Assembly (NCBI GenBank): GCA_032718475.1
Contig: JAUCBJ010004540.1
Location: 1-45,686 of the forward strand
Direction of reading: 5' to 3'
Length of the DNA: 45,686 nucleotides
DNA from: Nemertoderma westbladi
Taxonomy: Eukaryota; Animalia; Xenacoelomorpha
A program made the position numbers and the translations under genes. Each line of letters starts with the position of its first letter. Within the stretch, counting starts at the first letter, position 1. Shown here one piece after another: positions 2-45,686 of this stretch. The notes below the pieces were generated by a model. That model did no database searches. It was not told the origin of the DNA and was given only the letters and a program-made list of their open reading frames with translations.

Positions 2-2602
2 CAAAGGCCTACTGAATGCTTTCCTACAGGGTATACAATTCCTAAGAACTTGGTTCAGAGCCCTACGAGGTTTATAAAAATAGTAGCGAGTTCGAATTTC
101 GCTCAGAACTCGTTCTCTACCAGCATGATACAGTTTGCTATGAACATCTACAATTATCTTGATCTGTATGTCAAGATTTCTGATGAGTATGGGGAACTTA
201 GTGTCAAAGGATAACGGGGCGTTGGTTAGCCGACCTCCAACACGTATTAACCCATCTATCATGGTACTAGAGAAGCGATCCCTTAAGCGCATCTGTGGAT
301 TTCTTAACAACAGGAAATACTTATCGGAATCCTCATAACATTGTAGAAGTCTCAGCATCTGTTTGTTGGTTTCATCATGCTCCTGGTAACTGATCTTCTC
401 CTTTAGAAACCTGTTGGATACCTTGTATTGGGGAAGATCTTTAACAACATGGACTCGTGCAGATGTTGATGGAGCATCATCACTATGGGTCTTTGTCCCG
501 GAGTAACGATGATGAAAACATCGTTTTAAATAGGTGACAGCTTTACAGAGCCGATTCCAGGAACTGTAGTGACGTATCGCTCTCTGCAAGAGAGGTGAGA
601 GTCCTTGCGAAATATCTGGTATTCCAGATTTCCAATCCTTGTCACGGATTTCCAAGACTTCTTTAGTCGTGGCGGTGGGTTTCTGATCCAAAGCATCCTC
701 TCCGGAAGTAAATAATACAGATAGATCAACCGCAGGTTTAAACAACTTCGATTTACTCGCTCGAGTTTTGGGTTTAACTTTCTCCGCTCCCTTGGCCTGT
801 CTGATCTCTGCTGTTGTGAGATGGGGAGGCCATTCTTCTTCTTCTCTGTAGAGAAAGTCGGGTCCTCCTAACCATTCGGGAGTATTTACCAATTCCTTTG
901 GAGTCGCTCCTCGGGACGCGATGTCTGCTGGGTTAATCGTTCCGGGGCAATGTCTCCATTGGTCCATCGTCGTGCGACTAAGTATGATGGCTACCCTGTT
1001 GGTAACGAAGACGCTGAACTGACAGACTTCATTGGTTATATACTCTAACACGAGTAAAGCGTCGGTCCAATAGACAGTTTTCTCTAATGTATAGTCAATC
1101 TGTTCGGTTACATTCCGGCCGATGGCTGTAGCGTATAGAGCCGCTTTTAACTCCGCTCGAGGAACTTTCAACTTGTTGTTGATTAATGCCTTAGAAGTAA
1201 CCAAGGCGACTTTGATTCCATCCGGAGTTTCCACTCTTAGGTAGGCTACTATACCGATTCCCATATCGCTGGCGTCTCCAAACACATGGAGTTGATAGGA
1301 ATACGTAGGGAGAACATGACCAAAATATGAACGGGAAATTATAAAATCCTCGATGGCTGGTAGAGAATCTTCCCATTTCATCCACTTCTTCAATAATTCT
1401 CCCTTAAGTGGATCGTCCCATGAGTGGTTTTCAAGCCACATTTGTTGTACCAAACTTCGAGCAATCAATATAACTGGGCTAATAAATCCCAATGGATCGA
1501 AATAAGTGCTCAGTATACTTAAGCAAATCCGTTTGGTTCGAACTGGATTATCTCGCTGTTTTAGTTGGAAAAACAGGATATCTCGCTCTGTGTCCCATTT
1601 CAAGCCGAGTGTCTTGGTTTCTGGCAGATCATCTTTGATCAAATCGAGATCTTTCGCTCCTCGATCTTCCGCAGGGATCGACTCCAGAAACTCACGGGAG
1701 TTGCTGGTGAATTTTGTTAATCGAAAACCACCTCTTTTTAAGCACTCTACCGTTCCTTTAGCGACCTCAATGGCTTCCTCAACTGATGGAAGGGACTTCA
1801 GATTGTCGTCCATGTATATGTCTCTCTTGATGTTGTCGATCACTTCCTTAGAGAAGGCCTCTCTGTTGTCCTCTGCAGTAGTACGCACTACCGAACAGGC
1901 GTTGGAAGGGCTTGAGATTATCCCAAAGGCCTGGATGGTCATCCAGTACTCCACCGGTTTCTGGTTGAGGTCTCCTTCGGGCCACCACAGAAATCGTAGA
2001 CTATCTCGATCCCTATCTAACACCTTGACTTGTAAGAACATGCCTTCTATATCGGAGGCGAAAGCAATAGAATATTGTCTCAATCTTAAAAGAATTCCCA
2101 ACAAAGATTGAAGCAAGTTGGGTCCGGGTAACAATTCAGAGTTAAGGGATTGACCCATGTAAAGAGCGGAGCCATCAAACACTACTCTCACTTCGTGTGG
2201 TTTACCGGGTTTAGGAACGTAATGGTGAGTTAAGTAATACGTTCTTTCAGTCACAGGTGTTTCTTCCGGTACCCTCTCCGCGTATCCCTTATTAATAAAT
2301 TTTTCCAGCTGTGTTTGATACATTGCTTTAGCTGAAGAATTAGCCGTAAGGCGTCGATGGAGTTGCGCGATTCTTTTTTCCGCCAAAGGTCTGTTATTGA
2401 TGAACTTCGGTTCTCTCTTGCGAAAAGGTAAACCGACTTCGTACCTTCCTTGATCTTCGAGGAAACGTGTAGTTGTCTCTTGGATCTGCTTGGCCCTTTC
2501 CTCTTCCACCGACAAGGCTTTATCGTAGGAATTGGGCTCTACCGCCTCTTGCGTAAAGAATCGTACGGCATGTTCATCCCGAGTCTTGGCATTGCATGAC
2601 GC
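2..2602 (-). CDS. pol: BEL/Pao pol (RT, RNase H, start of integrase); open frame running off the window start, absent from the ORF track
   Basis: Manual minus-strand translation is stop-free for 867 codons: GRYEVGLPF, RVVFDGS, SDIEGMFLQV, RFLWW, YMDD, KTLGLKW, FDPLG, LHVFGDAS, VPRAEL, YWTD, WRHCPGTINPADIASRG, GLIRVGGRL, and integrase H-x4-H...CIPC zinc finger. Confidence 0.93.
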
Positions 2603-5600
2603 TCAATGACGTCATTTAACTCGTCGTTATAAGCTTCTCGTTCAGATGGATAGAGAAGTTGACATAAGTTCACTTGGTTTTGCCAAGCCTCGTTTTCCTT
2701 AAGGAGATCGATGGTATTCTCCTCATCAAAAAGCTGGTGAACGTCGTCATTATCTGAGGAGTATGGAATTCCCTCAGTTGAGTTGTCTCCCTCACTGGTA
2801 TCATCTTCCCATTCACTCACCTGGCATACGCTCTCTTGCGGTAGTCTTTCTCTGAGTGTTCTACGGGAAGGGCCAGTAAAGTACCAACCTACTCTAGTTC
2901 TTACCGCATAGGTCTGTAGTGGCTGCGGTTGAGCAGGCCGTTTCTCTAATGTCTCCAGCGCCTCATGCGCGTTTTGGCCGATGAGTATTTGCACTCCAGG
3001 ATAATCAGTCTGGAATCGAGGTATGTTAAGATGTTGGATGCTCTCATCCTCGTCCCAATTATAAAGGTCTGCTTGAGTAGTAGCGAAGTTCTTTATAGCC
3101 ACCATTTTCACTGACCTTATGCTGTGTTCTCCTAGTTCGTCCTGGGGGGTGGACAACGCTCCTACATAATAATCAGCTGTTATTGTAGATTTCCAAACTT
3201 GCATAATGCCTGACATGTTGAGCTTAGTTTGGAACTTGGGTTGTCCAGCAAATATATCTTCGGCTAGCTCTTTGTCGATGAATGTTCCTGTACTACCGGA
3301 GTCAAGGAGGGCGTTCACTACATAACTCCTCTCAGGTCCGTGAACCCTTACTTGCACCACAGGAAACTCTCGGATCCCTACATTGGAAGATGGCTCTTTC
3401 CAAGATGGTTGTCGCTCAGAAGTAGTTAGAGTAAAGTCGTTGTCTGTATCTTTTTCATATGTGAGTGCTCGATACACTGCGGTATTTATCATGTAACAGG
3501 ATTCGTTTTCGTCGGAGAACTCGTCTGTATAGAATCCTTCCATCTCAGATTGATCAGTGTCGTTCACATCACTGAATTGGACATGTAACTCGGAATCACT
3601 CACCTGATTCGGACTATTTCGATCGAATTCAGCGTGCAACAAGATATGATGTTTCGCACCACACTTTGCACACCTTATGTCAGAGAAACAGGTTCGCCGT
3701 TGGTGTCCTTGTCTGAGGCAATTATAACATAACCGCTTATCCCACATGACTTCGCGTCTCTCTGTTAATGATTTCTTTAGAAATTCATCACACCTATTCA
3801 AATGGTGGGTCCCGTCGCACAGCGCACATTTCGGTTTGATGTTACTTACCTTATTTTGAGTCACATTGTGTACACTTGCCTTTTCTTCGGGTTTTCTCAC
3901 CTGAATTCTCTTGGGAGACGTGGGAGGAGTTTTTCTTACCTGTTCCCTCCTGTCATTTGTTCGAGACTTGAATTTACTTACCTGATCTTTAGGCATTTTA
4001 TTCACGTAATAAGATCTATCCGTGTCCTTCCCGCTATCTTCTCCTTGAGAAGTCTGGCTTTCGCCGTCGTCTGTATAACATACTGGTGTTACCTTTCTCC
4101 TAGAGACGGGTTTTTCACTTACCTTGTTTTCCGGTGTCTTCTCCCTAGACAGTTTCAGGAGCTGTAATTTCACTTCTCCATCTAGGAATGACATGAGATC
4201 AGCCATGGTAGGGTCTCGTCGTTGTTGTTCCATCATATATAACACTTTCTTATCCCAGCGTGTACCTACTCCACCTTTCGGTAAAGTAGAAGCCACTGCT
4301 CTAATAACCATAGTGTTCTGATACTCATGAGACTTACCTAGCCAATCTAATTGTCTGCAGATCTCCTGGATCTCATCGGAAAACTCGATAATTCCACTAC
4401 TAATAAACTTTCGGGGCGCTACTAACTTTGCATATAAGTACCCAGCGATATTATTCCTATTACCATACCTGATGTTTAGTGTATCCCAAACTTGTCTTAA
4501 TCCGTCTGGATGTCCAATAAACTTTAACGCCATTAACTTGGGAGATCCTTCCAAGCACTCGATGAGGTATCTAAGTTTTTCTCCATTAGATAGTACAGAG
4601 TTCTGTATGTTATCTTTGTAATATTCATTAAAAGGTAACCATTTCATCTCATCTCCATTGAACTTGACGATCTCTCCCACCTTTACCGCTTGCCGGGCTT
4701 CGGTTCTAGCCATTTGACGCGTAAAACTTTCTTGGGCCATCGTGTTATTTAATATCGAATTATCGGTATATAAATTTCTCGGATTATGATCAGTTCTATA
4801 GGGAATGTCATTATCAACAGGTCTATAATTACCCTTAATAGGGTTCACTATAGGAGTTTCTACTTCGCTAGCAGTATATATGCGTGTAGGCTCCACACCT
4901 TGCGCATGAGATACTTCAGACCTAACAGGTTGACACATTGTTACAGAGGGTGGTGGTATACCTCTTTGAGTATTTACTAATTTATCGCGCTCTAGCGCGA
5001 TACTTTGCTGCACTTCTTGCAACTCTAGCCTACTTTCCCTTACTGTGCCCTTGAACTGCTGGACAGTCTCCTGCATCTGTCCGAGCAGGATATCCATCCC
5101 CCGCCGTCCCTCGTCCACCCATTCGACCGCCGAAGCGGGAGTCGCCAACGTTGTAGCGGGCGGACGATGGACAACGGGCGACAAATTATGAATATTTCGC
5201 TCGGGGTCCAGGACCTGAACTGTCTCTGGGGGAGTTCTACGGGGCACAGGTAGCTTAGTGCTATGCAGAGGGAATTTAGAGATAACTTCAGGGAGCACAG
5301 GTGTGTCTATCACCGAAGGGGTGATTTCAAGAACAGGCCTAATTATTTCAGGCTCATCTACTATAGTAGGGAGTCTTTCTATTTTAATTATTTGGTCTGT
5401 GGGCTCTGTACTACCTAAGTTGGTGTTATTTAGTTGCCTTCTAACAGCTGGAGGCAAATCAGGCAATTTCTGACGGTGGAATGTTCTTTTATGTCTACTT
5501 AGACGAGATCTATTTCCTTTGCCTTCAGTATCGGTGGTATCGCCTTCCTCAGATGATGTATATCCCTGTCTTTTGGGAGTAGATCGATTCATCATCTGCA

Positions 5601-7053
5601 TATTACTAGCTGTTAACTGTTTATTTATGCAGTCTTGATTCTCCTGAATGTTTTCCAATTCTAATTGAGTGGTTTCTTCAGTCGCTCTCCATTCGGCTTC
5701 TGCCACTGCCTCCGCCGCTTTTGCCTCTGCCGCTGCCTCTGCTGCTGCCACTTTTCTTTCTGCTTCTGCAGCTGCCACTGCCGCTGCTACTGTCGCTTTT
5801 GCCTCTGCCGCTGCCTCTGCTGCTGCCGCTTTTCTTTCTGCTTCTGCAGCTGCCACTGCTGCTGCTACTGCCGCTGCCTTTCGGTCTTCTATACGTTTTT
5901 TCTTTACTTGTTCTTCTTGGACTCGTGTCAGGCGGAGTTGTTCATCAAATTTAGCCTGATTCGCAGCCCTCATTTCCACATCGATGGCATCCAACACAAG
6001 CTTGGTTCCTTCGCTATTAGGGCTAAGTCCATCTAACCTTCTTCTCAATTCGTCATCACCTAAAAAACGTTGATAGTCCGACAGATAGATGTCAATGGCA
6101 TCTCTCTTATGCGGCTTCTCTGCCGTCGCTTCACTTTCCACTTGGGAAAAAGTAGCGTCTGTTGATTCTCCATGGGTTGATCGCTCCTCCAGCTGAGCTT
6201 TCCACTGAGCTGTTCCTTGAACCTGGAGACTCACCCGTTGAAACCAAGTCTTTACGGCAACTTGCAACGACGTGTCTTGTTTTCGTTTAGAAGCCTCCTC
6301 AAAGGCTGATAAGATTAGCCTGATTCGTAGAATTCTTTCTCTAACTTGATAAAGCAGCAATCCCTGCTCTTGAGGTCCTTGAGGTTGTTGAAACAGTTGT
6401 TCTTTTAATCGCTCTATAGAGCTGAAGAATCCCTGTGCGTATCCAGCTGCGGACCTCTTCCACACAGCTGGATCGATGGTTTCCTTGGCTACTCCCATCC
6501 GGTGTATGTCTTCCCAGGCAGCTTCTGATAAATCAAACGGGAGTCCGGGTCCGGGGAAGTTCCATTGCGACTCGACCATGGACTTCAGTTCTTCTCTTGT
6601 GTATCCAGCATAACTATCTCTAGTTGAACGCTGGCTTCTCGCCCAATCGATCTGGTGTTCTTCCACAGCGATCAATAACCTAGTGAGTACGGCTGCAGGA
6701 AGGATGAGAAGGGGATCCGAATAAACCACATCCGTCATCCTTGCTCCGCGCTCGGGTGTCAGCTCTACAGTATCCTCACTACTGGAGCTGTTGGGCCGTT
6801 GAGAAGTAAGTTCTTGTATCGCGGGTTGTTGCTGTTCCGCTGCTTCTTGGTCCCGTTTGACCTGAGCTCGAGTGCCTATGATAGACCTACGATGTTGGAC
6901 CAGCCTAGGTTCTTTTATTACTACTGGAGGGATGACTTTCCTCACAGTGGGAGGTGAACTGAACCTACGACCAGACGGTTCTACGTCTCTATCTGAGTCG
7001 CAGATAGTTACATCTAATAAACTGTCTGACAGGTTCTGCTTAGAATCAGACAT
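2539..7053 (-). CDS. gag: BEL/Pao gag + aspartic protease, 1504 aa, with a very long N-terminal extension
   Basis: Capsid-like block from IVKFNGDEMKWLPF through LIECLEG and LNIRYG; BEL triple knuckle CALCDGTHHLNRC / CYNCLRQGHQRRTC / CAKCGAKHHILLH; protease ALLDSGS, ILIG, AVRTRVGW. Confidence 0.93.
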   Translation of the reverse strand: MSDSKQNLSDSLLDVTICDSDRDVEPSGRRFSSPPTVRKVIPPVVIKEPRLVQHRRSIIGTRAQVKRDQEAAEQQQPAIQELTSQRPNSSSSEDTVELTPERGARMTDVVYSDPLLILPAAVLTRLLIAVEEHQIDWARSQRSTRDSYAGYTREELKSMVESQWNFPGPGLPFDLSEAAWEDIHRMGVAKETIDPAVWKRSAAGYAQGFFSSIERLKEQLFQQPQGPQEQGLLLYQVRERILRIRLILSAFEEASKRKQDTSLQVAVKTWFQRVSLQVQGTAQWKAQLEERSTHGESTDATFSQVESEATAEKPHKRDAIDIYLSDYQRFLGDDELRRRLDGLSPNSEGTKLVLDAIDVEMRAANQAKFDEQLRLTRVQEEQVKKKRIEDRKAAAVAAAVAAAEAERKAAAAEAAAEAKATVAAAVAAAEAERKVAAAEAAAEAKAAEAVAEAEWRATEETTQLELENIQENQDCINKQLTASNMQMMNRSTPKRQGYTSSEEGDTTDTEGKGNRSRLSRHKRTFHRQKLPDLPPAVRRQLNNTNLGSTEPTDQIIKIERLPTIVDEPEIIRPVLEITPSVIDTPVLPEVISKFPLHSTKLPVPRRTPPETVQVLDPERNIHNLSPVVHRPPATTLATPASAVEWVDEGRRGMDILLGQMQETVQQFKGTVRESRLELQEVQQSIALERDKLVNTQRGIPPPSVTMCQPVRSEVSHAQGVEPTRIYTASEVETPIVNPIKGNYRPVDNDIPYRTDHNPRNLYTDNSILNNTMAQESFTRQMARTEARQAVKVGEIVKFNGDEMKWLPFNEYYKDNIQNSVLSNGEKLRYLIECLEGSPKLMALKFIGHPDGLRQVWDTLNIRYGNRNNIAGYLYAKLVAPRKFISSGIIEFSDEIQEICRQLDWLGKSHEYQNTMVIRAVASTLPKGGVGTRWDKKVLYMMEQQRRDPTMADLMSFLDGEVKLQLLKLSREKTPENKVSEKPVSRRKVTPVCYTDDGESQTSQGEDSGKDTDRSYYVNKMPKDQVSKFKSRTNDRREQVRKTPPTSPKRIQVRKPEEKASVHNVTQNKVSNIKPKCALCDGTHHLNRCDEFLKKSLTERREVMWDKRLCYNCLRQGHQRRTCFSDIRCAKCGAKHHILLHAEFDRNSPNQVSDSELHVQFSDVNDTDQSEMEGFYTDEFSDENESCYMINTAVYRALTYEKDTDNDFTLTTSERQPSWKEPSSNVGIREFPVVQVRVHGPERSYVVNALLDSGSTGTFIDKELAEDIFAGQPKFQTKLNMSGIMQVWKSTITADYYVGALSTPQDELGEHSIRSVKMVAIKNFATTQADLYNWDEDESIQHLNIPRFQTDYPGVQILIGQNAHEALETLEKRPAQPQPLQTYAVRTRVGWYFTGPSRRTLRERLPQESVCQVSEWEDDTSEGDNSTEGIPYSSDNDDVHQLFDEENTIDLLKENEAWQNQVNLCQLLYPSEREAYNDELNDVIERHAMPRLGMNMPYDSLRKRR

Positions 7054-7874
7054 GTCTATGTATACCGTTGAATGTCTACTGCTGTATTACAGTCTGAGCA
7101 AGTCTAGTAACTCAGTATGAACTGCTAGCCTAGTAATTAATTACCGATACTGCTACTCAGTGTAGCGTGATATATATATAATATATTAGAATACCGGTAT
7201 ACTTATGGTATATATAACTATATAAGTATTATTACAGACTAGGTTTATCACAGAATACCGGTATAATTTTAGCACCAATATATATAAATATATAATAGGC
7301 CTATCGGAATAGCGGTATACAGCTTACAGTTTGTAGTATATATAATTCTGGACTAGAATTAATTACAAGCACCGGTATAATTTCAGCCTAAATTTATAGA
7401 AATAAGATAATAGGCCTATCGTAAATACCGGTATATCAATTATTTTAATAATTGAATTTCTGAATTTTAGGGTTACTTGGTTACTTTAACTTACTTTATT
7501 GCCGTTAGTTAAGCAGTAGTCCAACTGATATTGAGACCTAATTGTTATATGGTAGGCCTACTACTTATAAATCGTTAGATTTGATTTATAATATATATAT
7601 ACCCGTTTTAATGGGTTTAGTCAATGTTTGAAATAAATGTTATTATTTCTGGGGAGTAATCACTACACAAAGCGGTGCGCTTTCAGTGAAGTGTTACTTA
7701 TAGGACACTAAAACAAATAATGCTAATTTACCTAAGTTACTTAATACTACAAATTACGTACAATTCGGGTTGAGATTACAATCTCTAAATAAACACAAAA
7801 ATTTACAAAAACACAAAATACGAATTTTTAGGGTAATTTTACAAGAATGAATTGAATAATAAATATTACGCTAC

Positions 7875-8732: not shown

Positions 8733-8786
8733 AAGTTTACCGGTTGACCGGTATTTTCAACTTTATTGCTTACTGCAATAAAGAAG

Positions 8787-8800
8787 CATATATCCTTTAA
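8787..8800 (-). promoter_or_regulatory. Non-tRNA primer-binding site of BEL copy A (self-priming candidate)
   Basis: Sense ttaaaggatatatg directly follows the LTR end ...cgcgaaca and is exactly complementary to LTR positions 9563-9576. Confidence 0.75.
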
Positions 8801-10016
8801 TGTTCGCGCTTTCAGACCTTTGGCAGTTTAACCCGCCAAATTAAGATGTCTTCTAGATATTAAATCGCTTTTTAGTCTATGACAAGTATTTGATTCACTA
8901 CACTAGTCGAAACCAATCTGTGCGCGATCATTCACCCGCTGGATATTCCCGGGAGATTGGGTTCGACGGCTTAATTTTTATTGCTATGTAAGCCTAATGT
9001 ATTATTCGACTGACAGTATTATATAATCTCTGACAATATTATTCACCTTCGGGAATATTAACAGTTCCTTTAGGACGTGGCGCTTTATCTATATAAACAG
9101 AGTTATGACTTAAACTACTCACAACGATATGGCTCAATTATAATTCACATATATGGCGCATTCTTTAGGAATTGCTTCTTTAACAGACTCACTCATACAC
9201 AATGCTGCACAATACTGCACACTAATCTGCCAATCTTCACTGATTTTAGTCACATATAAAAGGAACACAGACTGACTCATGTAGGGTCTATCAAATAACA
9301 TTAGATTCACTTCAAACCACTTTAACATAAGTCACAATCGTTATTGGTAACCTTTCTCTCTTACCTTCGGTATATCAAGAATATTGGGTTTTCGGGGTTA
9401 TTTCTCGTTATTCCAATATAATAATTCATCAACCAATATAATGAATAACCGACAACAAATAGCAGTATACAGTATTGATTGAGCAGGTAATTTTTAGCAG
9501 TTTCAGCAGTTATTAAAAGCCGTGTGTCAGCAGTGATTACGAAATTGCAGTGATTCCATGAATTAAAGGATATATGTCCTTATAATTAAGCCTACTAGTG
9601 TAAGACTAAAAACTGAAAACACGGAGGTGCCAAAAGCCGGTTCTTAGGCTCTGGGCAAAAACATAACACTGAACTACTGAGTTTCTGTATACACCTCCAA
9701 CACAGAGACAACAAACGCTCTGATTGGTCAACCTGAACAACGAGAGAACAAAGAAACAAAGAAACGTCGACGTGGCAATATCAGCTGCTAGCCGTCGTCA
9801 TGGTAGCGACACTGTTTTCAAGAGTATCGAGCTTTTACGTCACGGAATTACGGATTATGTCCTCTAAAGTACAAATACAGAAGAAATAGCTTTTATGTCC
9901 GCTAAAACACCAGTACAGCAAGGACACGGCCTTTTTATGCCTGGTAAACCAACTACAGAGTATTTTACGGGAAAAATAAGGAAAAATAACCGGACAATTC
10001 AGCAAAAGCTTTTACA
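8801..10016 (-). repeat. 5' LTR of BEL copy A (1216 bp, TGT...ACA)
   Basis: Sense starts TGTAAAAGCTT and ends GAAAGCGCGAACA; the same termini delimit 1213 bp in the sibling copy (40782-41994). Confidence 0.8.
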
Positions 10017-19647: not shown

Positions 19648-19650
19648 AAG

Positions 19651-24794: not shown

Positions 24795-24988
24795 GCGGTC
24801 CCCCCAGAACTTTATTCCCCAGAGGAAACTCTAGTACGCATTTAGCTACCACTTAAGGATGCAAGGCAGAGTGCCCTGGCTGGTCCCTTTAAAGCATTCG
24901 TGCCGAAACGAAAACTGCCCTGGCCCAGTTAAGGATCGAACCCACGACCTCAGGAGATGTGAATTCAATGCAACCACTACACCAAGGT
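24795..24988 (-). mobile_element. tRNA-derived SINE
   Basis: Minus strand: A box tggtgtagtggt (24973-24984), B box ggttcgatcc (24933-24942), then actctgccttgcatcctt...taaatgcgtac, resembling the Meta-type SINE central domain. Confidence 0.65.
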
Positions 24989-30996: not shown

Positions 30997-31190
30997 GCGG
31001 TCCCCCCAGAACTTTATTCCCCAGAGGAAACTCTAGTACGCATTTAGCTACCACTTAAGGATGCAAGGCAGAGTGCCCTGGCTGGTCCCTTTAAAGCATT
31101 CGTGCCGAAACGAAAACTGCCCTGGCCCAGTTAAGGATCGAACCCACGACCTCAGGAGATGTGAATTCAATGCAACCACTACACCAAGGT
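30997..31190 (-). mobile_element. tRNA-derived SINE, duplicated copy
   Basis: Same A and B boxes at 31175-31186 and 31135-31144. Confidence 0.65.
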
Positions 31191-31689
31191 GGAATCTACG
31201 GTGTAAGTAAGTATTCTACCTCCACGGGTGTTGTTCCTATTAGCGAAAATGAATTCGGACGAATATAAGATTGAGAGATATGGCGCAGCGGAGAGCGTGT
31301 AGACTTAGGTATTGTACTATCTAGTTTAGCGTGTAGGGTATAGTATAGCATTAGTTTAGTATAGTAGCGAAGTGTTCATTTAGTATGTTAGCTATTTCAG
31401 TAGGGTCCTTCGTAGCTCCCTCGTTTGGCCGCTTGCGGCATGAATGCTTTTCCCTCTACCCGGTTGTACAGCCTCGTAGATATTCGCTGACCTTATACTC
31501 TCCCCCTGTCATCAGGTGCCACGGTTCACTTAACTCACTGCGCGCATTTCCCACTGACACCTGCGGGGATTTATTCCCCCCCCCCCCCCCCCTCTCGTGA
31601 CTTACTAGGTCTTTAGGTCTTTAAAATACCTGAGTGTTTAAAGCTCATCTATCCCATCATAGTAGACATGTACTGTACAACAAGTGTCA

Positions 31690-33008
31690 CACAAGAAATG
31701 AAAACAAATAAGTTGGTGCCAGTTCCCAAGAAGGGCAACCTAACACTCTATGGTTCTTTTCGGGGAATCTCATTGATCTCGATTGCTGCAAAGCTATACA
31801 ATAGAATTCTATTAAATCGCATCAGGGATCCCATTGAGAGACTGTTATCTTTGTTGACTTCTTCAAGGCCTTTGATTCAGTCTTCCGCTCACGTATGTTC
31901 AGCATACTTTCATTATATGGGATTCCTGATGAAATTATTGCAGCAATCAGATCAGTATACGAAGGTTCGACAACATTTGTGCCTACTGTTGACGGTGACA
32001 CAGAACCATTTGAAGTGTTATGGGGCGTCCTCCAGGGAGACACACTTGCACCATTCTTGTTCATAATTGTGGTTGACTATGTTCTACGCATGTCCTTAGA
32101 TCATCATAATGATGATGGGGTGATGATAACTCCACCTACTGGCTCCAGAAGTCGAGGAAATCCTGCCAAGTACCTAACTGATCTAGACTTTGCTGATGAC
32201 TTAGGAGTACTCTCAGAATCACGAGAGGGAGCCCAACGGCTCCTCAGCTCATTAGAACATGCTGCTTCTAGTGTTTGTCTTTTTATTAACTCCAGAAAGA
32301 CCAAAATTTTGACAGTTAACTTTGAAAGTTCTCAGCAAGTCTCTGATCGGATGAGCATAAGCTCAAAAGATGGTATGCTTGAGCATGTGGATGACTTCTG
32401 TTACCTGGGATCATGGATCCCGAAGTCAGGTGAGGACCTTCGAATATGTAAGGGAAAGGCATGGGCAGCCTTGAATAGGCTTTCCAGGATTTGGAAGTCA
32501 CCGAGAATTAATCGGAAACTTAAGGTCCGGTTATTTAGAGCAGCAGTATTTCCAGTACTCCTCTATGGGAGACCATGCTGGGCTCTAACTGCTGAGGACA
32601 CCAAATCTCTGAATGGCACATTCACAAGAATGCTACGCCGGGTTCATTGTGTCAAGTACAATGCACACATCTCCAACGAGACACGATATAACATTGGAGG
32701 TGTCTCATTGGTTCCGCCAAGCTTGACACTAGAACAAAATCGCCTCCGCTTTGCAGGAAATTGCAGAACATTGCAGGACCAGCCAGTGCATAATCTTGTA
32801 CTTTGGCAGCCTCATGGAGTGAATAAGCATGGTGGACAGCCCATGACTTTCTTGAGACGCATCTTAAAGGACACTGGCCTTGAAGATGCGGATGATCTAG
32901 CAAATGTCATGGGTGATACGGAGTTGTGGCGGTGCAATTTTGTCGATAAGCAGGCACAGCTTTCTTAAAAATGCAGCTGCAATGCAGCATGCCGATCCTA
33001 GTAGTAGT
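31690..33008 (+). mobile_element. RTE-clade LINE, 5'-truncated RT with an internal deletion and (TAG)n tail
   Basis: VPVPKKG, FRGISLISIAAKLYNRILLNRI, FVDFFKAFDSV, GVLQGDTLAPFLF, TDLDFADD, DFCYLGS, LLYG, RLRFAG; tagtagtagt at 32999-33008. Confidence 0.92.
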
Positions 33009-33377: not shown

Positions 33378-36300
33378 TGTGGGGCGAGCCACGAAGTGAG
33401 TGAGCCTTAGCGTAGTGGTACCATTAATCAACCTGTGGGGCGAGCCACGAAGTGAGTGAGCCTTAGCGTAGTGGTACCATTAATCAACCTGTCGTTCTGT
33501 CGTTCTGTCGTTCTGTCGTTCTGTCGTTCTGTCGTTCTGTCGTTCTGTCGTTCTGTCGTTCTGTCGTTCTGTCGCGTCCAATTTTAAACGTTAATAACTC
33601 AGCCAATCTTTGATGAAATCTATCCAAACTTGGTACACATGTTGTTTGGCAAAAGTTTAGAAATTTTCCAAGTAGAATTTCCGTGTGGCCTTCGAGAAGC
33701 TAAGATAATAGCAGTTAATTAGTTAATTAAGTTGATTACGGTAAAAACACCATTTTCAACCTGCCTTTTAAAGGAAATTAATTGTTTTACAGTATAAGAT
33801 TTAAATAATTATACTTAAAAATTATACAGATGTAATCCACATACGCCATTCTATTATAGTTTTTAATTAGTTCAAGTGATTTGCTTTATTAATTGTGTCT
33901 TTAATTGATCTAAAGTAATTAAAACGTCATAAAAAATTTATTCTCATTAAATACTGCTCATTTATTGGCTAACATGCTGGTACGATGGAAGGATGTGTGT
34001 GTAAGGCAGCTATTTGCTGGGAATGATTATTGGTCAAGTCTCTGCTGGTGTGGAGCTAGCTGGCTTAGAGTTGTGGCTGTAGACTAACCAGAGAGGAATT
34101 GTACTGTAATAGGCAACCAGTATTGCTATTCCAGCCCAGACATCATTCTTGAAATCCAACATCCTAACATCCTTCCTGTATTGACTCTACTATAAGTGTT
34201 GTATTGCTATCTCAGGTAAATGACAGATATAATAACATAAATACAATCCATGGCATGGCTGTTGTGTAGGCTTCTGAAATAGTTTATTCCACAATGTTTA
34301 TGTCTGGTTATTTTTTAATTGAATTTTTGCAAAGTAGTAAAATTAATTTTCTTAAAAATAATATTATTATTTTATATGTAACCTCGGAAATTAGCTACAT
34401 TTTTTCGCTGCAGCTTTAAGAGTGTACATTGATTTAATATTATTTCAATACCCATATTACTACATCGGCATAAGATGCGTTGGCGTTGTATCACACATCT
34501 CCACATATCACACATCTCCACATAGATGTATCAACAGTTACTCGCACAGTTTCGAAACTTCGCATAGTTATAACTGTAAAAAGATCGTCAGTCTGCGTTT
34601 ATGAAAAATATTTTATGACAAAACAGGACAAGCGACGAGCGCAACGAGGCATATAATGAAGACGAGTACTGCGTTGACTAAATTGTTATATAAACCACCT
34701 GGCTTCACATATTGATCGCATCCCTAGTTATTATTATTATAAAGATCGTCCTAGCCTGCGTTTAAGAAATATATTTAAATACAAAACAGGACGAACGCAA
34801 AGAGGCTTATAATGAAAACGAGTACTGCGTTTATTATATTCCTATAAACCACCTGGCTTTGCATATTTAACGTGCGATTGGAAATAAGTTCGTGCTACCC
34901 TTCCGTGGGTGGTAGATGTCGCGGTTATGTATTGGTGGGTGGGGGGAGGAGGGGGGGGGGGGGGTGTGCAGATTAAAAGGGGTGACACGTACTGTCCCCC
35001 TTTCTTTGATTAATTGGTGGTGTGGGTTAATATCTCATAACCTGATTTTGTGATACAGTCGCACAATTTTAATTTGTATCTCATAACTGGGCCTCGTGCT
35101 GCGCGAAGGCCCCACGAACGTGTCGTTCTGTCGTTCTGTCGTTCTGTCGTTCTGTCGTTCTGTCGCGTCCAATTTTAAACGTTAATAACTCAGCCAATCT
35201 TTGATGAAATCTATCCAAACTTGGTACACATGTTGTTTGGCAAAAGTTTAGAAATTTTCCAAGTAGAATTTCCGTGTGGCCTTCGAGAAGCTAAGATAAT
35301 AGCAGTTAATTAGTTAATTAAGTTGATTACGGTAAAAACACCATTTTCAACCTGCCTGTTAAAGGAAATTAATTGTTTTACAGTATAAGATTTAAATAAT
35401 TATACTTAAAAATTATACAGATGTAATCCACATACGCCATTCTATTATAGTTTTTAATTAGTTCAAGTGATTTGCTTTATTAATTGTGTCTTTAATTGAT
35501 CTAAAGTAATTAAAACGTCATAAAAAATTGATTCTCATTAAATACTGCTCATTTATTGGCTAACATGCTGGTACGATGGAAGGATGTGTGTGTAAGGCAG
35601 CTAGTTGCTGGGAATGATTATTGGTCAAGTCTCTGCTGGTGTGGAGCTAGCTGGGAGTTGTGGCTGTAGACTAACCAGAGAGAAATTGTAATAGGCAACC
35701 AGTATTGCTATTCCAGCCCAGGCAGCATTCCAACATCCCAACATCCTTCCTGTATTGACTCTACTATAAGTGTTGTATTGCTATCTCAGGTAAATGACAG
35801 ATATAATAACATAAATACCATCCATGGCATGGCTGTTGTGTAGGCTTATCTGAAATAGTTTATTCCACAATGTATATGTCTGGTTATTTTTTAATTGAAT
35901 TTTTGCAAAGTAGTAAAATTAATGTTCTTAAAAATAATATTATTATTTTATATGTAACCTAGGAAATTAGCTACATTTTTTCGCTGCAGCTTTAAGAGTG
36001 TACATTGATTTAATATTATTTCAATACCCATATTACTACATCGGCATAAGATGCGTTGGCGTTGTATCACACATCTCCACATATCACACATCTCCACATA
36101 GATGTATCGCACAGTTTCGAAACTTCGCATAGTTATAACTGTATAAAGATCGTCAGTCTGCGTTTAGGAAAAATATTTTATGACAAAACAGGACAAGCGA
36201 CGAGCGCAACGAGGCATATAATGAAGACGAGTACCTCGTTGACTAAATTATTATATAAACCACCTGGCTTCACATATTGATCGCATCCCTAATTATTATT

Positions 36301-36683
36301 ATTATAAATATCGTCAGCCTGCGTTTAAGAAATATATTTAAATACAAAACAGGACGAACGCAAAGAGGCTTATAATGAAAACGAGTACTGCGTTTATTAT
36401 ATTCCTATAAACCACCTGGCTTTGCATATTTAACGTGCGATTGGAAATAAGTTCGTGCTACCCTTCCGTGGGTGGTAGATGTCCCGGTTATGTATTGGTG
36501 GTTGGGAAGGTTGGGGGGGGGGGGGGGGGGATTAAAAGGGGTGAACACGTACTGTCCCCCTTTCTTTGATTGATTGGTGGTGTGGGTAAATTTCTCAAAA
36601 CCTGATTTTGTGATACAGTCGCTCAATTTTAATTTGTATCTAATAACTGGGCCTCGTGCTGCGCGAAGGCCCCACGAACGTGT
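33378..36683 (+). mobile_element. Head-to-tail dimer of a Helentron/DINE-like non-autonomous element (units 33490-35120 and 35121-36680), preceded by a duplicated 56 bp head
   Basis: 56 bp x2 at 33378 and 33434; (tgtcgttc)10 and (tgtcgttc)5; core ...ataactc...ccaaacttggtacacatg; terminal hairpin gggcctcgtgctgcgcgaaggccc; gtggggc/gccccac inverted pair. The repeat is certain, the class is inferred. Confidence 0.65.
33490..33574. repeat. (TGTCGTTC)n microsatellite, 10.6 units; second tract at 35121-35165
   Basis: Read directly from the sequence. Confidence 0.97.
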
Positions 36684-37379: not shown

Positions 37380-39107
37380 TCAATTTTGATTGCTTTGCTT
37401 CAATATTGTTGCATCTCTAACGGCTTTTACCCAATCGGCTTTGAGTTCAGGTGTATCGCATCTGAATATCAGTACACCAACTCCACTGTGGGATATCTTG
37501 AATACTAAGGGCGCCAGACTTGAGTCAACTTCAGGCACACTTTCTTCCACTGTATATCCTAGCAACGGTCTGTCATCCTGCGCCCTGGGGTCTCCACGGT
37601 TCTTAAGCTTGTACAATACCCAGCCATGCAGCTCAAACCAGTACTCTTTCCATACTCCTCTTCTTTTCAGTAGCTTCAGTGATCCACTCATTTCTACCTT
37701 ATCCCGTTCTGAAACCACCAACGTTTTCGCATCCGAGGCCTCTTTCACTTCCTTGAATTTCTTGCTGAAAAGTCCCTGGAGACATTCAATATCATCACCA
37801 ATATTATCAGTAATAATTGGCTGATACTTTTCAGGGAATTCTCCCCTTCCGATGACATCATACAGTTTCTTGTGGCAGTAACTACAAACGCGGCAAACTT
37901 TCCAGGATTTATAGAGAATAGGCGCTTCAAAATCTGAACAAGTACCACAGACAACCTTGCCGCATATACGGCAGTGATGGCGTCGGTTGAATCTCGTGAA
38001 ATTTTGCAGTTTACACAGCTGACACATGCTCGTTTGGTTGTCTTCTATCCAATGAGGTGCTACTGCTCCCGGGAATTCGTTTGTATCGCTCTTTTTCATG
38101 GCATTCCCATCTACGCTGAATGAATCTAGCTTCTCCCAAAGGGTAGATTTTGCACATTCGATGGTGGATATCCACTCATCTCTTTCTTTCCGAGTTTCAA
38201 CAAAAAAATCATATGCTTCAGGCAATCCCGGCCCTGTAATAGAAAACCAATTACCAGTGTCCAGGTGCATCGGTGGGGCAGTAACTATGACTTGTTCAAT
38301 TGGAATGTCTATACTAATACTTGTGTCATTTTTTATGCAAAGAAGTTTATCAGAAAAAAGATATAAATCTCTTGGTTGATTTTCCTTTAAATTTGTTGGG
38401 TATCTTTTCAGTACACGTCCATATTTAATAATGAATCTTCCTGGTGTAAATATATTTACCTTTCTGTTAGATTTCTCTAGTTTTTTTTGCAGTTCCAAGA
38501 GTTTATTTGAATTTACATCTTCTGCCTCTATCTTGACGTGGAGATCATTAATTCCACTTATAATGAGTAAAGTAGCTTTTACATTCTCTTTTTCATCCTT
38601 TTCACTTTCAGACAAGACTTTTTGGTAATCTTTAAGCAGTTGCTCGTGCTTGTGTACCCTCCATATTGGTTCCTCCAGCCTTCGTCTCAGGTCCATTTTC
38701 CGATCCCTCAAATCGTCCTTATTACCACCTCCTCTAATATATTTTTTTTCAAACTCCACCACAAATGCCTTAAACTGTTTATTTTGTTTCATTGCATTGT
38801 CAAATACTTTTATTGCATATTGAGATCTGTTATTGATAAAATTCGCAGTCATTTTAAGCATAAAGATGGCATATTTTCTATATACATCCGCTATCTTAGG
38901 AACTATATGCCAGTTATCAGCTCTCTCCTGGAGTTCTTTTGATAATCCCTCACTTAGTTTTAAAAGATTCTCGAACAGATTCATGATTATGTTCAACTGA
39001 CTTTTTTCAATAATCGGATTTCCATTTATTCTCCTGGCATCAATTTTCTCCTTAAATGTGTTTATTAGGCGCAAATTATTTAGATATTCTAATTCAGTGA
39101 TTGCCAT
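37380..39107 (-). CDS. FGD: FGD/frabin-family protein: RhoGEF (DH)-PH-FYVE-PH in one uninterrupted ORF; the true start may lie further upstream
   Basis: DH: TELEY...L, LFENL, LEEP.WR...LLKDY; PH ending ERDEWISTI; FYVE WIED/CQLC/RRHHCRICG.VVC..CS/RVC..C; second PH with WKEYWF, LY, PLLGY.V, W..A. Frame stays open 32 codons upstream of the ATG. Confidence 0.92.
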   Translation of the reverse strand: MAITELEYLNNLRLINTFKEKIDARRINGNPIIEKSQLNIIMNLFENLLKLSEGLSKELQERADNWHIVPKIADVYRKYAIFMLKMTANFINNRSQYAIKVFDNAMKQNKQFKAFVVEFEKKYIRGGGNKDDLRDRKMDLRRRLEEPIWRVHKHEQLLKDYQKVLSESEKDEKENVKATLLIISGINDLHVKIEAEDVNSNKLLELQKKLEKSNRKVNIFTPGRFIIKYGRVLKRYPTNLKENQPRDLYLFSDKLLCIKNDTSISIDIPIEQVIVTAPPMHLDTGNWFSITGPGLPEAYDFFVETRKERDEWISTIECAKSTLWEKLDSFSVDGNAMKKSDTNEFPGAVAPHWIEDNQTSMCQLCKLQNFTRFNRRHHCRICGKVVCGTCSDFEAPILYKSWKVCRVCSYCHKKLYDVIGRGEFPEKYQPIITDNIGDDIECLQGLFSKKFKEVKEASDAKTLVVSERDKVEMSGSLKLLKRRGVWKEYWFELHGWVLYKLKNRGDPRAQDDRPLLGYTVEESVPEVDSSLAPLVFKISHSGVGVLIFRCDTPELKADWVKAVRDATILKQSNQN

Positions 39108-39295
39108 TGTTTTTGGAAAAGCAAATAATTTTTTTAACCTTTTAGCTTCTTTTGTCTTTGGTTGATCACTTAATAGGAGGTTCGATGCGCAATTGGGCCC
39201 AATTTAATTTCCCAATTCCAATTTGATGAATTAGATAAACTTGCTGTGAATCTTACTTTTGATGCTAATAAAATTGTTGAAACTTGTTTTGATGA

Positions 39296-40269: not shown

Positions 40270-40780
40270 TGCGTCTAGGTACTAGTCATACCTGAGGACG
40301 ATGACCTTCAACAGGTGAAAAATGATGACGAAAAATTCGAAGTAGTAACTAATGCAATTGGCCACTCACGTCTACAATCATCATTTAGGCGACTAGGGAA
40401 GAAAAGGGAGGGAGGCTGTCAGCCTCTTTTAGTCTCCCTAGGAGAGCTGGCACCCGACCTATTGAAGGATATGCCGGGGCTAGATGGTTTCTACATAAAA
40501 CCTGATACACACCCTGCAGTCCGTTTGGAGATTGAGAGATTTGGCGGGGCTAGATGGTTTCTACATAAAACCTGATACACACCCTGCAGTCCGTTTGGAG
40601 ATTGAGAGATTTGGCGGGGCTAGATGGTTTCTACATAAAACCTGATACACACCCTGCAGTCCGTTTGGAATTTAAGAGATTGAGAGATTTGGCGGCTTTA
40701 GAACAGAAAAGACCAGAGAATATTTAATGCATCGTAGAATATGACCATAAATCGAGATCTGTTAGGATTGATGGTAAAAC
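40270..40780 (+). pseudogene. Degenerate LINE ORF1-like fragment, abutting the BEL copy D LTR
   Basis: RRLGK...QPLLV...GFYIKPD.HPAVR resembles the RRM-type ORF1 of CR1/L2 LINEs. Confidence 0.45.
40476..40695. repeat. 70 bp tandem repeat x~3
   Basis: tagatggtttctacataaaa at 40481, 40551 and 40621. Confidence 0.95.
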
Positions 40781-40781: not shown

Positions 40782-41994
40782 TGTAAAAGCTTCTGTGGGA
40801 TGTAACTGGCCCTTCGCCCCGCAACCCAGTTTTTCCCCCATACGCTAAAATACTCTGAAACCTACTGTAAAGGTTTTTCTGGGATATGACTGATTTGTTT
40901 TCTTTGCTAACCAGTTCCCCCCTCCAAAGCGTTGGAATCCTTTAGGAGGGATCTGAGCTGTTCGATTGGCCAGCCGGCTTGGGAAGGTTGCCCCAGTTAC
41001 CCATAGCCCTGCGTTGAGTTAGTTCTGATTTCGACCAATCCCGAGCTACTGAACTGAAATTATCCTGTCTCACTGCTGATTACATGTGTTGAACGGGATT
41101 CTTGGAAAATAAGAGAGAGAGTTGTTACTTGAGAGAGAGTTGTTACTTTTGTTGTTATTGCGGTCTAAGCCAGAAACACCGGCATTTTGTAACCAATACT
41201 GCTGTACCGTAAACTGCTTGAATTATCGAAAGTATAAACTGTTACCTAACTTAACGCATCTAACTAATCTCACGAATCGAATATCACCTAACTCATTAAT
41301 CATATTGTTTGTACTGTTATTTTACCGTCAGTTATTAATTGTAAATATTTGTTGATGGAAATATTGCTATTTGGATAATACGGATAAATCACCCAATTCC
41401 CAATTTTCTTGATAACACTACAGGTTAGAGAGACCGGCTATATATAACAATTGCGATTTATATTAATGTGGTGTGTATTGAATCCAATGTTATTTAGCAG
41501 ACCCTACGCGAGTCAATTACTGCTCTCTTTATGTGTGATCAAATATACTGACTGTCGGCAGAATAGTGTGTATGATTGTGATTGGTAACAAAGTATTTCC
41601 TAAAGAATACGTTTTATACTTTAATCAGCAGCAGTATCGTTGCGTTTAGTATAAGTCTTAGTTCTGTTTAAATAGGTAAAGCGCCACGTCCTAAAGGAAC
41701 TGTTAATATTTCCCGAAAGCCAATAATATCTGTCAGAGATTAATTATTAACGATCTATCGAATAATACATTAGGTATACACTACAACCTTACACTGTAAT
41801 AATACAATTCAAGCATCCGAATTCAGTCTCCCGGGTGTAGATCCATCGGGTGAATGATCGCGCATGGGCTGACTTCGGCTAATGTTTTGCGTATTAGCAT
41901 AAATTATTGTCGTATGCTAAAGTGGTTTTAATTAACGAAAAGACATATAAATTTTGGCAGGTTAAACTGCTAAAGGTCTTCGAAAGCGCGAACA
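40782..41994 (+). repeat. 5' LTR of BEL copy D (1213 bp)
   Basis: TGTAAAAGCTT...GAAAGCGCGAACA; same termini and near-equal length to the copy A LTR. Confidence 0.8.
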
Positions 41995-42007
41995 GTAACA
42001 GTTTATA
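41995..42007 (+). promoter_or_regulatory. Non-tRNA primer-binding site of BEL copy D (self-priming candidate)
   Basis: gtaacagtttata is the reverse complement of tataaactgttac at 41233-41245 in its own LTR. Confidence 0.75.
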
Positions 42008-42383
42008 ATCTTATTGCAGTAAGCAATAAGGTTGCAAGTGTAGGCATTAAATACAGTTTAATACTGTTCTGGCGAACAGTAACGGTTTACAATCTTATTG
42101 CAGTAGGCAATAAGGTTGCAAAATACCGTAGTGACTGGTAAAACTGAACCGGTACTTTGTAGGTCAGTAGGCCTAACTGTCATCACCGGTACCGGTACTG
42201 CTGTACAAGTACATTAGTATTATTCGATTTTGATTATTGTATACCGGTAGGTCTCGATATTAAATCGGGCGACGCCCTGGTTTTTATTGGGATTTTACTT
42301 AGGTCTATTTCTGTCAGTTTTATTTACTAGTAGGCTAATATTGAGCAGAAGGCGTGTGACCCTGCTCAGATTGTTCAGATAAT

Positions 42384-42930
42384 TGTAGGCTGAGCTGCTG
42401 TCTGACTGTGGTTGGGTTTGGAGAGATTACGGCGTGTGTAGAGTTTGTCTGATAAAGTGCCGTTAGTAAGTTGGGGCAGTCAACACTGTAAGGTCAATCC
42501 CCTCTTAAAGAGTAAGTCGTACTACCGTGTTAGCACGCATACTAACTAACAGTTTCAGAGTCTGCATATACTGTAGTTTATTTAGGCTTGATCGTAGTCT
42601 GCCAGTGTTTTAGCCTGTGTTTGTTTGTGTGGTCTGTTCAGGTACCGTAATAGTTATTACTCAAATATTTTGTAGGCTGGATTGTTGTCTAGCTATTTTT
42701 GGGTCTGAAGGGATTGCTGCGTGTGTAGAGTTGGTCTGATCAAGCGCCGTTAGTAAGTTGGGGCAGTCAACACTGTAAGGTCAATCCCCTCTTAAAGAGT
42801 AAGTCGTACTACCGTGTTAGCACGCATACTAACTAACAGTTTCAGAATCTGCACATACAGTAGTTTGTTTAGGCTTGATAGTAGTCCGCCAGCGTTTGGT
42901 TTGTATTTGTTTGAGTATTCTGTACGGGTA
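42384..42930. repeat. Two ~287 bp tandem repeats in the leader of copy D
   Basis: tgtaggctg at 42384 and 42671 with long identical cores. Confidence 0.9.
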
Positions 42931-44253
42931 GCGTAATATTTATTATTCAGAGTTTATGCGATTATTCGCAACATTCATGTCCCCAAGTTTATTCCTACAG
43001 TAATTGTGCTTGTTATACATACCGTTATAGTTAAACTAACCCCGGTACTACATCAGGGCTGCTTGGCGTAGGTAAAGACTGACGACTTTGTGCTTCGGTC
43101 ACTCCAGCAGATGCCGTGGTTCTTTTAACTGTTCAAGTATATTTAACTACTGATTATTTGTTATATCGGTACTTGTACCTAATTTAGGGTTTAGTGTACA
43201 GTGCCTTCCGAAGTAATTAGTGTAGGCAGTATATTTGTGTTGTAAAGTGGTTGATAGGCACATTCGTTAGCTCTATTAGCTTCTGGGTAGGAACAATCCG
43301 TGATACATAACGTAGTACCTATAGCGATACGGTTATAGGTCGTCAGGCGGTGGTATTTTCCTATCTGGACAGTACAATATATTTACTACTACTTATTATT
43401 CAAATACCGTAGTACCCTGTCTGTTTGTAATAGCCAGAAATCTAACCCTTTGTTAGGCTGGTTTGTAGACTTCCTGTAAAATTACCCTAAAAATTCGTAC
43501 GTAATATTTTGTTGTGTTTAATTAGAGAATTAATCTCACCCGTATCGTAAGTAATTTGTAGTATTAAGTAACTTAGGTAAATTAGAATTATCAGTTTTAG
43601 TGTCAAATAAATAGCACTTCACTGAGAGGCGTTCAGCTTCTGTGTAGTGACCCCCAGAAATAATAACATTTATTTCAAATATTGTAAAAACCCTTTTTAA
43701 ACGGGTATATAAATATTATAAATCAAATCAAACGATTTATAAATAGTAGGCCTGTCATACAAAACTAGGTCTCACTATCAGTTGGACTACTGCTTAAATA
43801 ACGGTAACAAAGTAAGTTAAAGTAACCAAGTAGCCCTAAAATATTCAGAAATTCAATTATTCTCAAAATAATTGACATACCGGTACTTACAATAGGCTTA
43901 TTATATTTATTTCTATAAATTTGAGCTGAAATCATACCGGTACTCTGTAATTAATTCTAATCCAGAATTATACTTATATACTATAAGTGTAAGCTGTATA
44001 CCGGTATTCATTATAGGCCTACTATATATATATATATTTGTGCTAAAATTATATACCGGTACTCTGTGACAAATCTAGTCTGTAATAATACTTATATATT
44101 ATAAGCATACCGGTATTCTAATATATTGTATATATATCACGTTCCACTGAGTAACGGTACCGGTAATAAATCGCTAGGCTTGTGGTTATACTGAATTACT
44201 AGATTTGCTTTAACTGAAATTATAGTAGTAGACATTCAACTGTATAACTAAAT

Positions 44254-45686
44254 ATGTCTGACACTCAGCAAAACCTGTCGGACAGTCTGATCGAGACCAC
44301 TATCTGTGATTCAGATAGGAGAGTGGAGCGAATAATAGAGAAGTTCGGCTCACCTCCTACTGTAAAAAAGGTCATCCCTCCAGTAGTATCAGACCCTAGG
44401 CTAGTCCACCATAGGTCCATCATAGGCACTCGGGCACAGGTAAAACGGGACCAAGAGGCAGCTGTCCTATCGCAGCAACATCTTGGTCAAGAACCTACTT
44501 CCCAGAGACCTGATAGCTCCAGCAGTTCAGATACTGTAGAGTTGACTCCCGAACATGGAGTGCAATGGCTGATACAGTCTACTCGGACCCCCTTCTTACT
44601 CTTCCTGCTGCAGTACTAACTACTATACTCATTGCGGTGGAGGAACATCAAGCCGACTGGGCGAAGAATAAGCAAGCGACCCAAGATGATTACGCGGGAT
44701 ACGCCAGGGAAGAATTGAGATCTATTGTTGAATCACAATGGAACTTTCCCGGACTCGGACTTCCGTTTGATATGTCCGAGGCTACTTGGGAAGATATACA
44801 CAGGATGGGAGTGGCTCAAGATACAATGGATCCAGCTGTTTGGAAGAGGTCGGCAGCAGGATATGTGCAGGGATTCTTCGAATCCTTGGAGCGATTGGAA
44901 GGGCAGCTGTTTCGACAACCTCACGGACCTCAAGAGCAGGAAGAACTGCTATATCAAATACGCGAAAGAACCCTACGCATTCGACTAATCCTCTCAGCCT
45001 TTGAGGAAACTTCCAAAAGAAGACAGGACACGTCGCTGCAGGTTGCTGTCAAAACTTGGCTACATCGAGTAGATCGCAAAGTACAGGAAACAGCCCAGTG
45101 GAAATCCCAGCTGGCTGAGAGATCAATCTATGAGGAACCAACTGATGTCACCGAACAAACTGATGTCACCCTTGCTCAAGAGGAAAGCGAAGAGGCCGCC
45201 GAGAAACCGCGAACTAGAGACGCTATCGACATTTATTTGTCCGACTATCAGCGATTCCTAGGAGACGAAGAGTTGAGGAGACGGCTACATGGACTTTCCC
45301 CTAATAGTGAAGGAACCAAGCTTATATTGGACGCGATCGATACCGAAATGTTAGCTGCAAACCAAGCTGAATGTGATGAAAAACTCCGCCTCACTAGAGT
45401 CCGAGAAGAACAAATAAAGAAAAGAAGGATAGAGGAACAAAAGGCGGCGGATATGGCGGCGGTTATGGCAGATGCAGAAGCCGAAAGAAAAGCAAAAGCA
45501 GCAGAAGCAGAAGCCGAAAGAAAGAAAAAGGCGGCGGAAGTAGAAGCCGAAAGAAAGAAAAAGGCGGCGGAAGCAGAAGCCGAAAGAAAGGCAAAAGCGG
45601 CAGATGCAGAAGCCGAAAGAAAGGCAGCGAAGGCAGTGGCAGAAGTAGAAAGGAGAGCATCTGAGCAGACTACCCAACTGGAGTTG
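44254..45686 (+). pseudogene. gag: gag N-terminus of copy D with a frameshift at ~44560; the second frame is open from 44565 to the window end
   Basis: First ~102 aa match copy A gag; homology resumes in another frame (MADTVYSDPLL..., ESQWNFPG, DPAVWKRSAAGY, RDAIDIYLSDYQRFLGD). Confidence 0.9.

Follow-up and report, generated by a model that had tools for sequence, protein, structure and literature searches.

Two copies of a BEL/Pao retrotransposon, referred to here as copy A and copy D, probably prime minus-strand DNA synthesis with a 13-14-nt piece of their own RNA, in a manner like that of Tf1, and not with a tRNA, as predicted from their sequences. Both reside in the window (the whole 45,686-nt stretch of DNA that was analysed), which contains two 5′ halves of a single LTR retrotransposon family, copy A on the minus strand and copy D on the plus strand. 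The 5′ LTRs run from TGT to ACA in both copies, whereas the window contains neither the 3′ LTRs nor the target-site duplication. The parts of the two copies are as follows.

8801..10016, minus strand: 5′ LTR of copy A, 1216 nt, TGT...ACA, followed by a leader of ~1.7 kb
2539..7086, minus strand: ORF1 of copy A, gag (DUF1759) with zinc knuckles and a DSGS protease motif
2..2602, minus strand: ORF2 of copy A, RT region, Peptidase_A17 (Pao) and the start of the integrase, leaving the window
40782..41994, plus strand: 5′ LTR of copy D, 1213 nt, TGT...ACA, followed by the leader
44565..45686, plus strand: ORF1 (gag) of copy D, open to the window end, in an open frame of 44517-45686

Assignment of the family to BEL/Pao is based on the coding regions of copy A. 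ORF1 matched DUF1759 (E = 1.8e-11), as is typical of BEL/Pao gag, and its translation contains three visible zinc-knuckle-like motifs and the DSGS motif at its end; ORF2 matched Peptidase_A17 (E = 2.8e-36) and Integrase_H2C2 (E = 3.7e-7), with the integrase core outside the window, and the order of aspartic protease, RT, Peptidase_A17, and integrase is that of a Pao-type pol. Among the 120 matches listed of 193, the long homologs of the copy A pol carry BEL/Pao domain sets (PF05380/PF03564/PF17921) at 27-41% identity, and the named hosts among the matches listed are echinoderms, a hemichordate, amphioxus, nemerteans, corals, insects, and a nematode, which marks the host as an animal. A Ty3/gypsy-type pol, as in the Tf1/sushi group, was not found, the domains and the listed homologs being all BEL/Pao; judged by these domains, the element is outside the Tf1/sushi family and would at most work like Tf1.

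Copies A and D share 72-80% DNA identity where alignable and 75% protein identity in ORF1, counted from copy A residue 117, and on these values they are taken to be siblings, neither a copy of the other. Their LTRs align at ~73% over the 3′ 700 nt, but the first ~590 alignment columns align poorly, except for TGTAAAAGCTT at the LTR start, which is common to both; the sequence upstream of the LTR is unrelated. In the copy A ORF1, ~116 residues precede the methionine that matches the first of the copy D ORF1 (7052-6739, minus strand, versus 44517-44565, plus strand). The long leader contains a ~287-nt twofold tandem repeat in both copies (7855-8430, minus strand, and 42383-42949, plus strand), short CCGGTAC-rich repeats are found at 8606-8732 in copy A, just past the hairpin described below, and three to four 70-nt tandem repeats lie upstream of the copy D LTR (40461-40702).

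The LTR borders were examined in the sequencing runs and by comparison. At the 5′ border of copy D (40782), contigs break or carry loose ends in runs X1, X3, X5, and X6, and TGTAAAAGCTT, shared with copy A, marks this border as well. The 3′ border of the 5′ LTR was inferred from the TGT/ACA termini, from a 9-nt sequence identical in A and D (GCGCGAACA, treated below), from the ...ACA ends of relatives, and from a drop in depth past 41995. The A LTR has a single AATAAA (position 1035) and the D LTR has none, which is too weak a guide to place R and U5.

Other features were noted in the remainder of the window. A unit present in three copies (12846-14896, 18061-20856, and 25408-27525) has a reverse transcriptase (RVT_1, 13121-13996) together with a weak match to GIY-YIG (20264-20611), a combination typical of Penelope-like elements. 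A tandem duplication of ~6.67 kb with 96.5-99% identity (18735-25403 and 25401-31602) contains ~462-nt tandem repeats (22888-23975 and 29557-30177), and another of ~1.59 kb is 95.7% identical (33530-35123 and 35121-36683). A further BEL/Pao pol fragment (16862-17683, plus strand; Peptidase_A17, E = 1.1e-35), which resembles neither A nor D at the DNA level, apparently lies between Penelope-like units. At 31838-32968 (plus strand), an open frame that matches RVT_1 and, below threshold, DUF6451 is probably part of a non-LTR retroelement. An uninterrupted 607-aa frame (37380-39203, minus strand) encodes RhoGEF, FYVE, and PH domains in an FGD-like arrangement; its sole match in the length range searched was amoebozoan, at 26% identity. 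Neither tRNA genes nor Rfam families were detected within the window.

In both copies, the first bases past the 5′ LTR are complementary to a segment within that same LTR, and these segments are the predicted site of primer binding (the PBS) and the predicted self-primer.

41233..41245, plus strand: primer block of copy D (predicted self-primer), LTR positions 452-464, TATAAACTGTTAC
41995..42007, plus strand: predicted PBS of copy D, GTAACAGTTTATA, beginning at the first base past the LTR-terminal CA
9563..9576, minus strand: primer block of copy A (predicted self-primer), LTR positions 441-454, CATATATCCTTTAA
8787..8800, minus strand: predicted PBS of copy A, TTAAAGGATATATG

The original prediction had paired 41233-41245 with 41995-42007, and these two segments were indeed found to form a perfect 13-nt inverted repeat, TATAAACTGTTAC with GTAACAGTTTATA, with arms 749 nt apart. 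It had also placed the end of the pairing exactly at the LTR-terminal CA. For copy D this is so, the outer neighbors being unpaired at both ends (g41232/a42008 and c41246/a41994); for copy A, where a perfect 14-nt pair unrelated to that of D was found, it does not hold strictly, as one extra A-U could extend the helix into the LTR-terminal A. The PBS blocks of A and D, set side by side, are equal at 5/13 positions, and the complementarity of PBS to own LTR that characterizes a Tf1-type mechanism is perfect over 14 nt in A and 13 nt in D. No TGG-type site, as expected for a tRNA 3′ end, was present at or near the LTR border of A or D, and the copy D PBS, lacking TGG, is therefore not a tRNA 3′-end site, though it might match an unusual part of a host tRNA.

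The surroundings of the PBS are far more conserved than the PBS itself. The 9 nt directly before it, GCGCGAACA, are identical in A (8801-8809, minus strand) and D (41986-41994, plus strand), and a hairpin with an invariant core follows it, separated from the PBS block by a 3-4-nt spacer that differs between A and D.

42008..42032, plus strand: conserved hairpin 3′ of the copy D PBS, core 42011-42029, folding as a 10-bp stem
8763-8781, minus strand: copy A hairpin core, an exact 19-nt match to the copy D core
42072..42121, plus strand: second, tandem set in D made up of the final 7 bases of the LTR, a block resembling the PBS, and the hairpin, 94% identical, at 84-nt spacing

For the 19-nt hairpin core, 0/100 shuffles gave 3 matches, and the copy A hairpin carries an extra T in its 5′ arm and an extra A in its 3′ arm, a paired insertion by which the stem is kept. 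The original statement that the flanks are kept while the pair differs from that of A was borne out, with GCGCGAACA and the hairpin core identical and the blocks unrelated; this conservation is confined to the PBS side, the primer block and the LTR around it falling within the 5′ portion that aligns poorly. The PBS-like block in the copy D duplicate (42079-42091) differs from the first block by 2 mismatches, both transitions, which hints, as a single case, that a PBS-like block elsewhere than at the LTR border is not kept matched. At this duplication, which may be a relic of aberrant strand transfer, further copies in the runs jump over 93-96 nt.

A pol profile search was used to recruit distant BEL/Pao relatives from metagenomes, and 80 loci were fetched of 556 confirmed matches. 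Distant direct repeats were present in 27 of these 80 loci, and a 5′ LTR end could be defined in 14. The bases following each LTR (offsets 0-6) were compared with the locus's own LTR, the null consisting of 2000 mock sites internal to each locus. The PBS was found to pair with its own LTR in nine of the 14, contiguously in five and split by a GT..AG interval in four, and the loci were distributed as follows.

L009, L017, L047, L050, L061: contiguous complement of 10-12 nt, null at most 7/2000
L002, L025, L030, L078: complement of 11-13 nt split by a 77-149-nt GT..AG interval, null at most 5/2000
L023, L049: weak matches of the split kind, 11 and 10 nt, null 72/2000 and 107/2000
L012, L044, L066: without complement

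The claim that it is the pairing and not the sequence that is maintained is upheld by both data sets: the A and D blocks differ yet are complementary, and the nine relatives pair with other letters. In the relatives, the duplex lies within 2-4 nt of the LTR end, and the primer-PBS distance is about 60-370 nt, compared with 749-762 nt in A and D. Of the 12 complementary segments, those of these two copies included, 10 open with GT on the PBS side (D conforms, A does not), so that the primer would end in AC. The donor is GTAAG in the four split loci, although the search had not required GTAAG. In these loci (L002, L025, L030, and L078) the predicted primer would exist solely in spliced RNA, because the PBS pairs only with the junction lacking the GT..AG interval; in the intron-split relatives the RNA cannot begin with the block, and the strict Tf1 geometry therefore fails for the clade as a whole. 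A splice-built primer was also sought in A and D and ruled out, D giving trivial 2-3-nt arms and A none. Among the three relatives without a complement, the LTRs of L044 and L066 are doubtful, and L012, with TGG at offset 5, may be tRNA-primed. Several observations are counted against self-priming, namely the three of 14 relatives without a complement and the two of 14 with a weak one, the long primer-PBS distance of 749-762 nt, and the copy A block not ending in AC. Directly before the TG of the relatives' 3′ LTRs, a polypurine-type motif, (A)GGGGCCGG(AA), is conserved in most. An exact 28-nt block taken from the best-conserved part of the LTR had no match in viral or metagenome contigs, and the pol protein alone recovered no relative in viral contigs.

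The family is highly abundant in the sequencing runs, with 8136 contigs in run X1 at 80% likeness. Near-identical D-type copies (96% likeness, variants at a share of at least 1%) were screened over 881 nt (41180-42060) in three DNA runs, and six variable places were found, with zero within either block; one A insertion at the PBS 3′ edge was seen in a single contig of a single run. Young copies with unpaired segments, which the original prediction had named as the case that would speak against it, were not seen in this screen, whose short contigs (mostly 60-100 nt) do not allow the two sites to be linked; among the pieces listed, none spans both the primer block and the PBS. The segment 41210-41250, which contains the primer block, is deeper than both flanks, and this excess fits constraint on the primer block, contig depth being a rough measure. 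A loose-end consensus hints at a possible third PBS variant, unlinked to any primer. In run X6, guessed to be RNA, contigs leave the D-type primer block uncovered, and the run is thus silent on expression and on the start site.

Chance complementarity was evaluated with two null models. When the LTR was shuffled with a first-order Markov model (n = 5000 per copy) and a complement was sought from the first post-LTR base, one as long or longer was obtained in 0/5000 shuffles for A and 1/5000 for D; when 5000 random internal positions per element served as mock PBSs at offsets 0-6, the result was 0/5000 for A and for D, and the longest null match was 12. Because two independent matches occur at corresponding positions, chance is excluded for practical purposes. 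A reading of the complementarity as chance, or as an inert by-product of aberrant reverse transcription or rearrangement, can nevertheless point to the number of inverted repeats in the sequence, since one of 13 nt in 7.7 kb is not rare and 16 inverted pairs, 12-24 nt long, were listed, and to the local rearrangement in copy D, its 84-nt duplication. It does not accommodate two independent pairs at the same two positions, the recurrence of the signature in nine of 14 distant relatives, or blocks that are invariant among many near-identical copies, and we regard it as close to refuted and very improbable.

Folding of the RNA is compatible with a primer-PBS helix. This helix is present in both the MFE and the centroid folds of D (41233-42032) and A (9576..8760), with duplex energies of -13.9 kcal/mol in D and -15.3 kcal/mol in A, and in both copies it encloses a ~750-nt domain with the hairpin directly after it. 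These folds indicate compatibility and are not proof, because starting the fold at the primer block favors the helix by construction. Compared with shuffles, the whole-domain fold gave z = -4.2 for copy A and z = -1.2 for copy D. Alternatively, the pairing might close the 5′ leader as a long-range RNA structure that serves packaging, dimerization, translation control, or help with strand transfer, with another RNA acting as primer. Signals for 5′-3′ or leader cyclization are known in Ty1 and Ty3, the helix does close a large folded domain in both copies, and the copy A domain folds better than its shuffles; the copy D domain, however, folds no better than its own, no alternative primer site is visible, as there is no TGG-type sequence past either LTR, and the duplex is flush with the LTR end in D and comes to within 2-4 nt of it in the relatives, as a primer must be placed but a stem need not be. 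We consider a purely structural role unlikely. The strongest support for self-priming is this geometry: the D duplex ends where minus-strand synthesis must start for a correct LTR end, and a generic long-range stem would have no reason to end exactly at the LTR border as it does in D.

Self-priming, the preferred reading, would proceed by the following steps. Folding of the genomic RNA would bring the block onto the PBS and so close the ~750-nt R-U5 domain, beside the conserved hairpin; cleavage behind the block by the RNase H of the element would then free a 3′ OH (C41245 in D, paired to G41995), and extension of this 3′ OH would add a first DNA base that copies the LTR-terminal A. The RNA block, still attached, would serve as template for plus-strand strong-stop DNA, and the daughter PBS would thereby take on the sequence of the LTR block. 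Such re-templating would keep primer and PBS in step, with the pair drifting at the fast rate of the LTR segment. In retroviruses, the primer templates the plus-strand copy of the PBS, and Tf1 reportedly has a PBS re-templating step, to which the title of a paper on that element points. The original prediction's proposal that the PBS would be re-templated in each cycle matches retroviral replication and the diverged PBS block between identical flanks.

The data also agree with a direction from LTR to PBS, which would account for the PBS being a diverged island between the identical 9 nt and the 19-nt core while its partner lies in the poorly aligning part of the LTR; compensatory selection alone, it can be argued, would not predict a PBS block evolving far faster than its neighbors. 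The sharp limit of complementarity at 13-14 nt, with conserved sequence beyond, may be the mark left once plus-strand strong-stop DNA has copied a primer that stops at the RNA's 5′ end.

Promoter motifs are ambiguous in this respect. The blocks are TATA-like (TATAAAC and ATATATC), with no clear TATA box ~30 nt upstream of either, and for this reason we retain a further possibility, that the block lies in U3 over the core promoter, so that only its 3′ copy would be present in the RNA, pairing with the 5′ PBS and circularizing the genome, and any priming would come from the 3′ end region or in trans. The position of the blocks in an LTR part where A and D are hard to align, as is usual for U3, would also be in keeping with it. 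An internal primer, on the other hand, would leave plus-strand strong-stop DNA without a defined stopping point, the abrupt end of complementarity fits a primer bounded by an RNA end, and cutting in U3 would presumably split off the 3′ R needed for the first strand transfer. We therefore hold a U3 location of the block to be distinctly unlikely.

Self-priming itself is already known. It is described for Tf1 and Tf2 of Schizosaccharomyces pombe, Tj1 of S. japonicus, and the Tf1/sushi group of Ty3/gypsy, and the PBS of Tf1 is complementary to its own LTR transcript, with an 11-nt duplex and an adjacent stem-loop (PMC7175516, PMC4600332). A and D resemble Tf1 in that their PBS pairs with a segment of their own LTR and not with a tRNA, in a short duplex (13-14 versus 11 nt) that abuts the LTR end and has an adjacent stem-loop. 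They differ from Tf1 in being BEL/Pao by their domains and not Ty3/gypsy chromoviruses, and in the ~750 nt between primer and PBS; a block forming the first bases of the RNA and an RNase H cut at that place are predicted for A and D. In addition, relatives in the A/D lineage split the block by an intron, and nothing of this kind was found described for Tf1.

Self-priming has also been predicted from sequence in plants and fungi, for the Tcn1 clade of Ty3/gypsy and the TAR lineage of Ty1/copia (Houba and Osr-1), in a report whose passages on priming mention no BEL/Pao case (PMC6317226). The case for A and D is like these in being built from sequence complementarity alone, with an equal inferred mechanism, and unlike them in superfamily and host. 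Within BEL/Pao, a tRNA-Tyr PBS is reported for Achilles of the olive fruit fly; A and D share with Achilles the BEL/Pao assignment, a 5′ LTR of the TG..CA type, and a PBS directly past the 5′ LTR, but they are without a TGG-type site and pair with their own LTR. The text of a BEL/Pao survey (PMC3118150) contains none of the terms PBS, primer binding, tRNA, or self-priming, and the Sinbad paper contains nothing on PBS or tRNA. No report of BEL/Pao self-priming was found in a full-text literature search that covered few subscription journals, and an older mention is possible. What appears new is a Tf1-like self-priming signature in BEL/Pao, in which the 13-14-nt block is unbroken and the PBS lies ~750 nt downstream of it.

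The start of reverse transcription has hardly been studied in BEL/Pao, and A and D offer a clean natural example in which the flanks are identical and the block is wholly exchanged. As a tentative extension, possible though short of probable, a large BEL/Pao clade may replicate without host tRNA, with a 13-14-nt piece of the element's own LTR transcript priming minus-strand synthesis and being copied into the PBS in each cycle; the pair would then change as a unit at the fast rate of the LTR, barcode subfamilies against cross-priming, and offer no fixed tRNA-derived target for PBS-aimed silencing. If a broad BEL/Pao clade does self-prime, each of the three LTR-retrotransposon superfamilies would have gained or retained self-priming. 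Annotation pipelines built to search for a tRNA-type PBS would, if this is true, miss or misjudge such elements, and the primer/PBS pair would be a natural marker of subfamily identity and of information flow from LTR to PBS.
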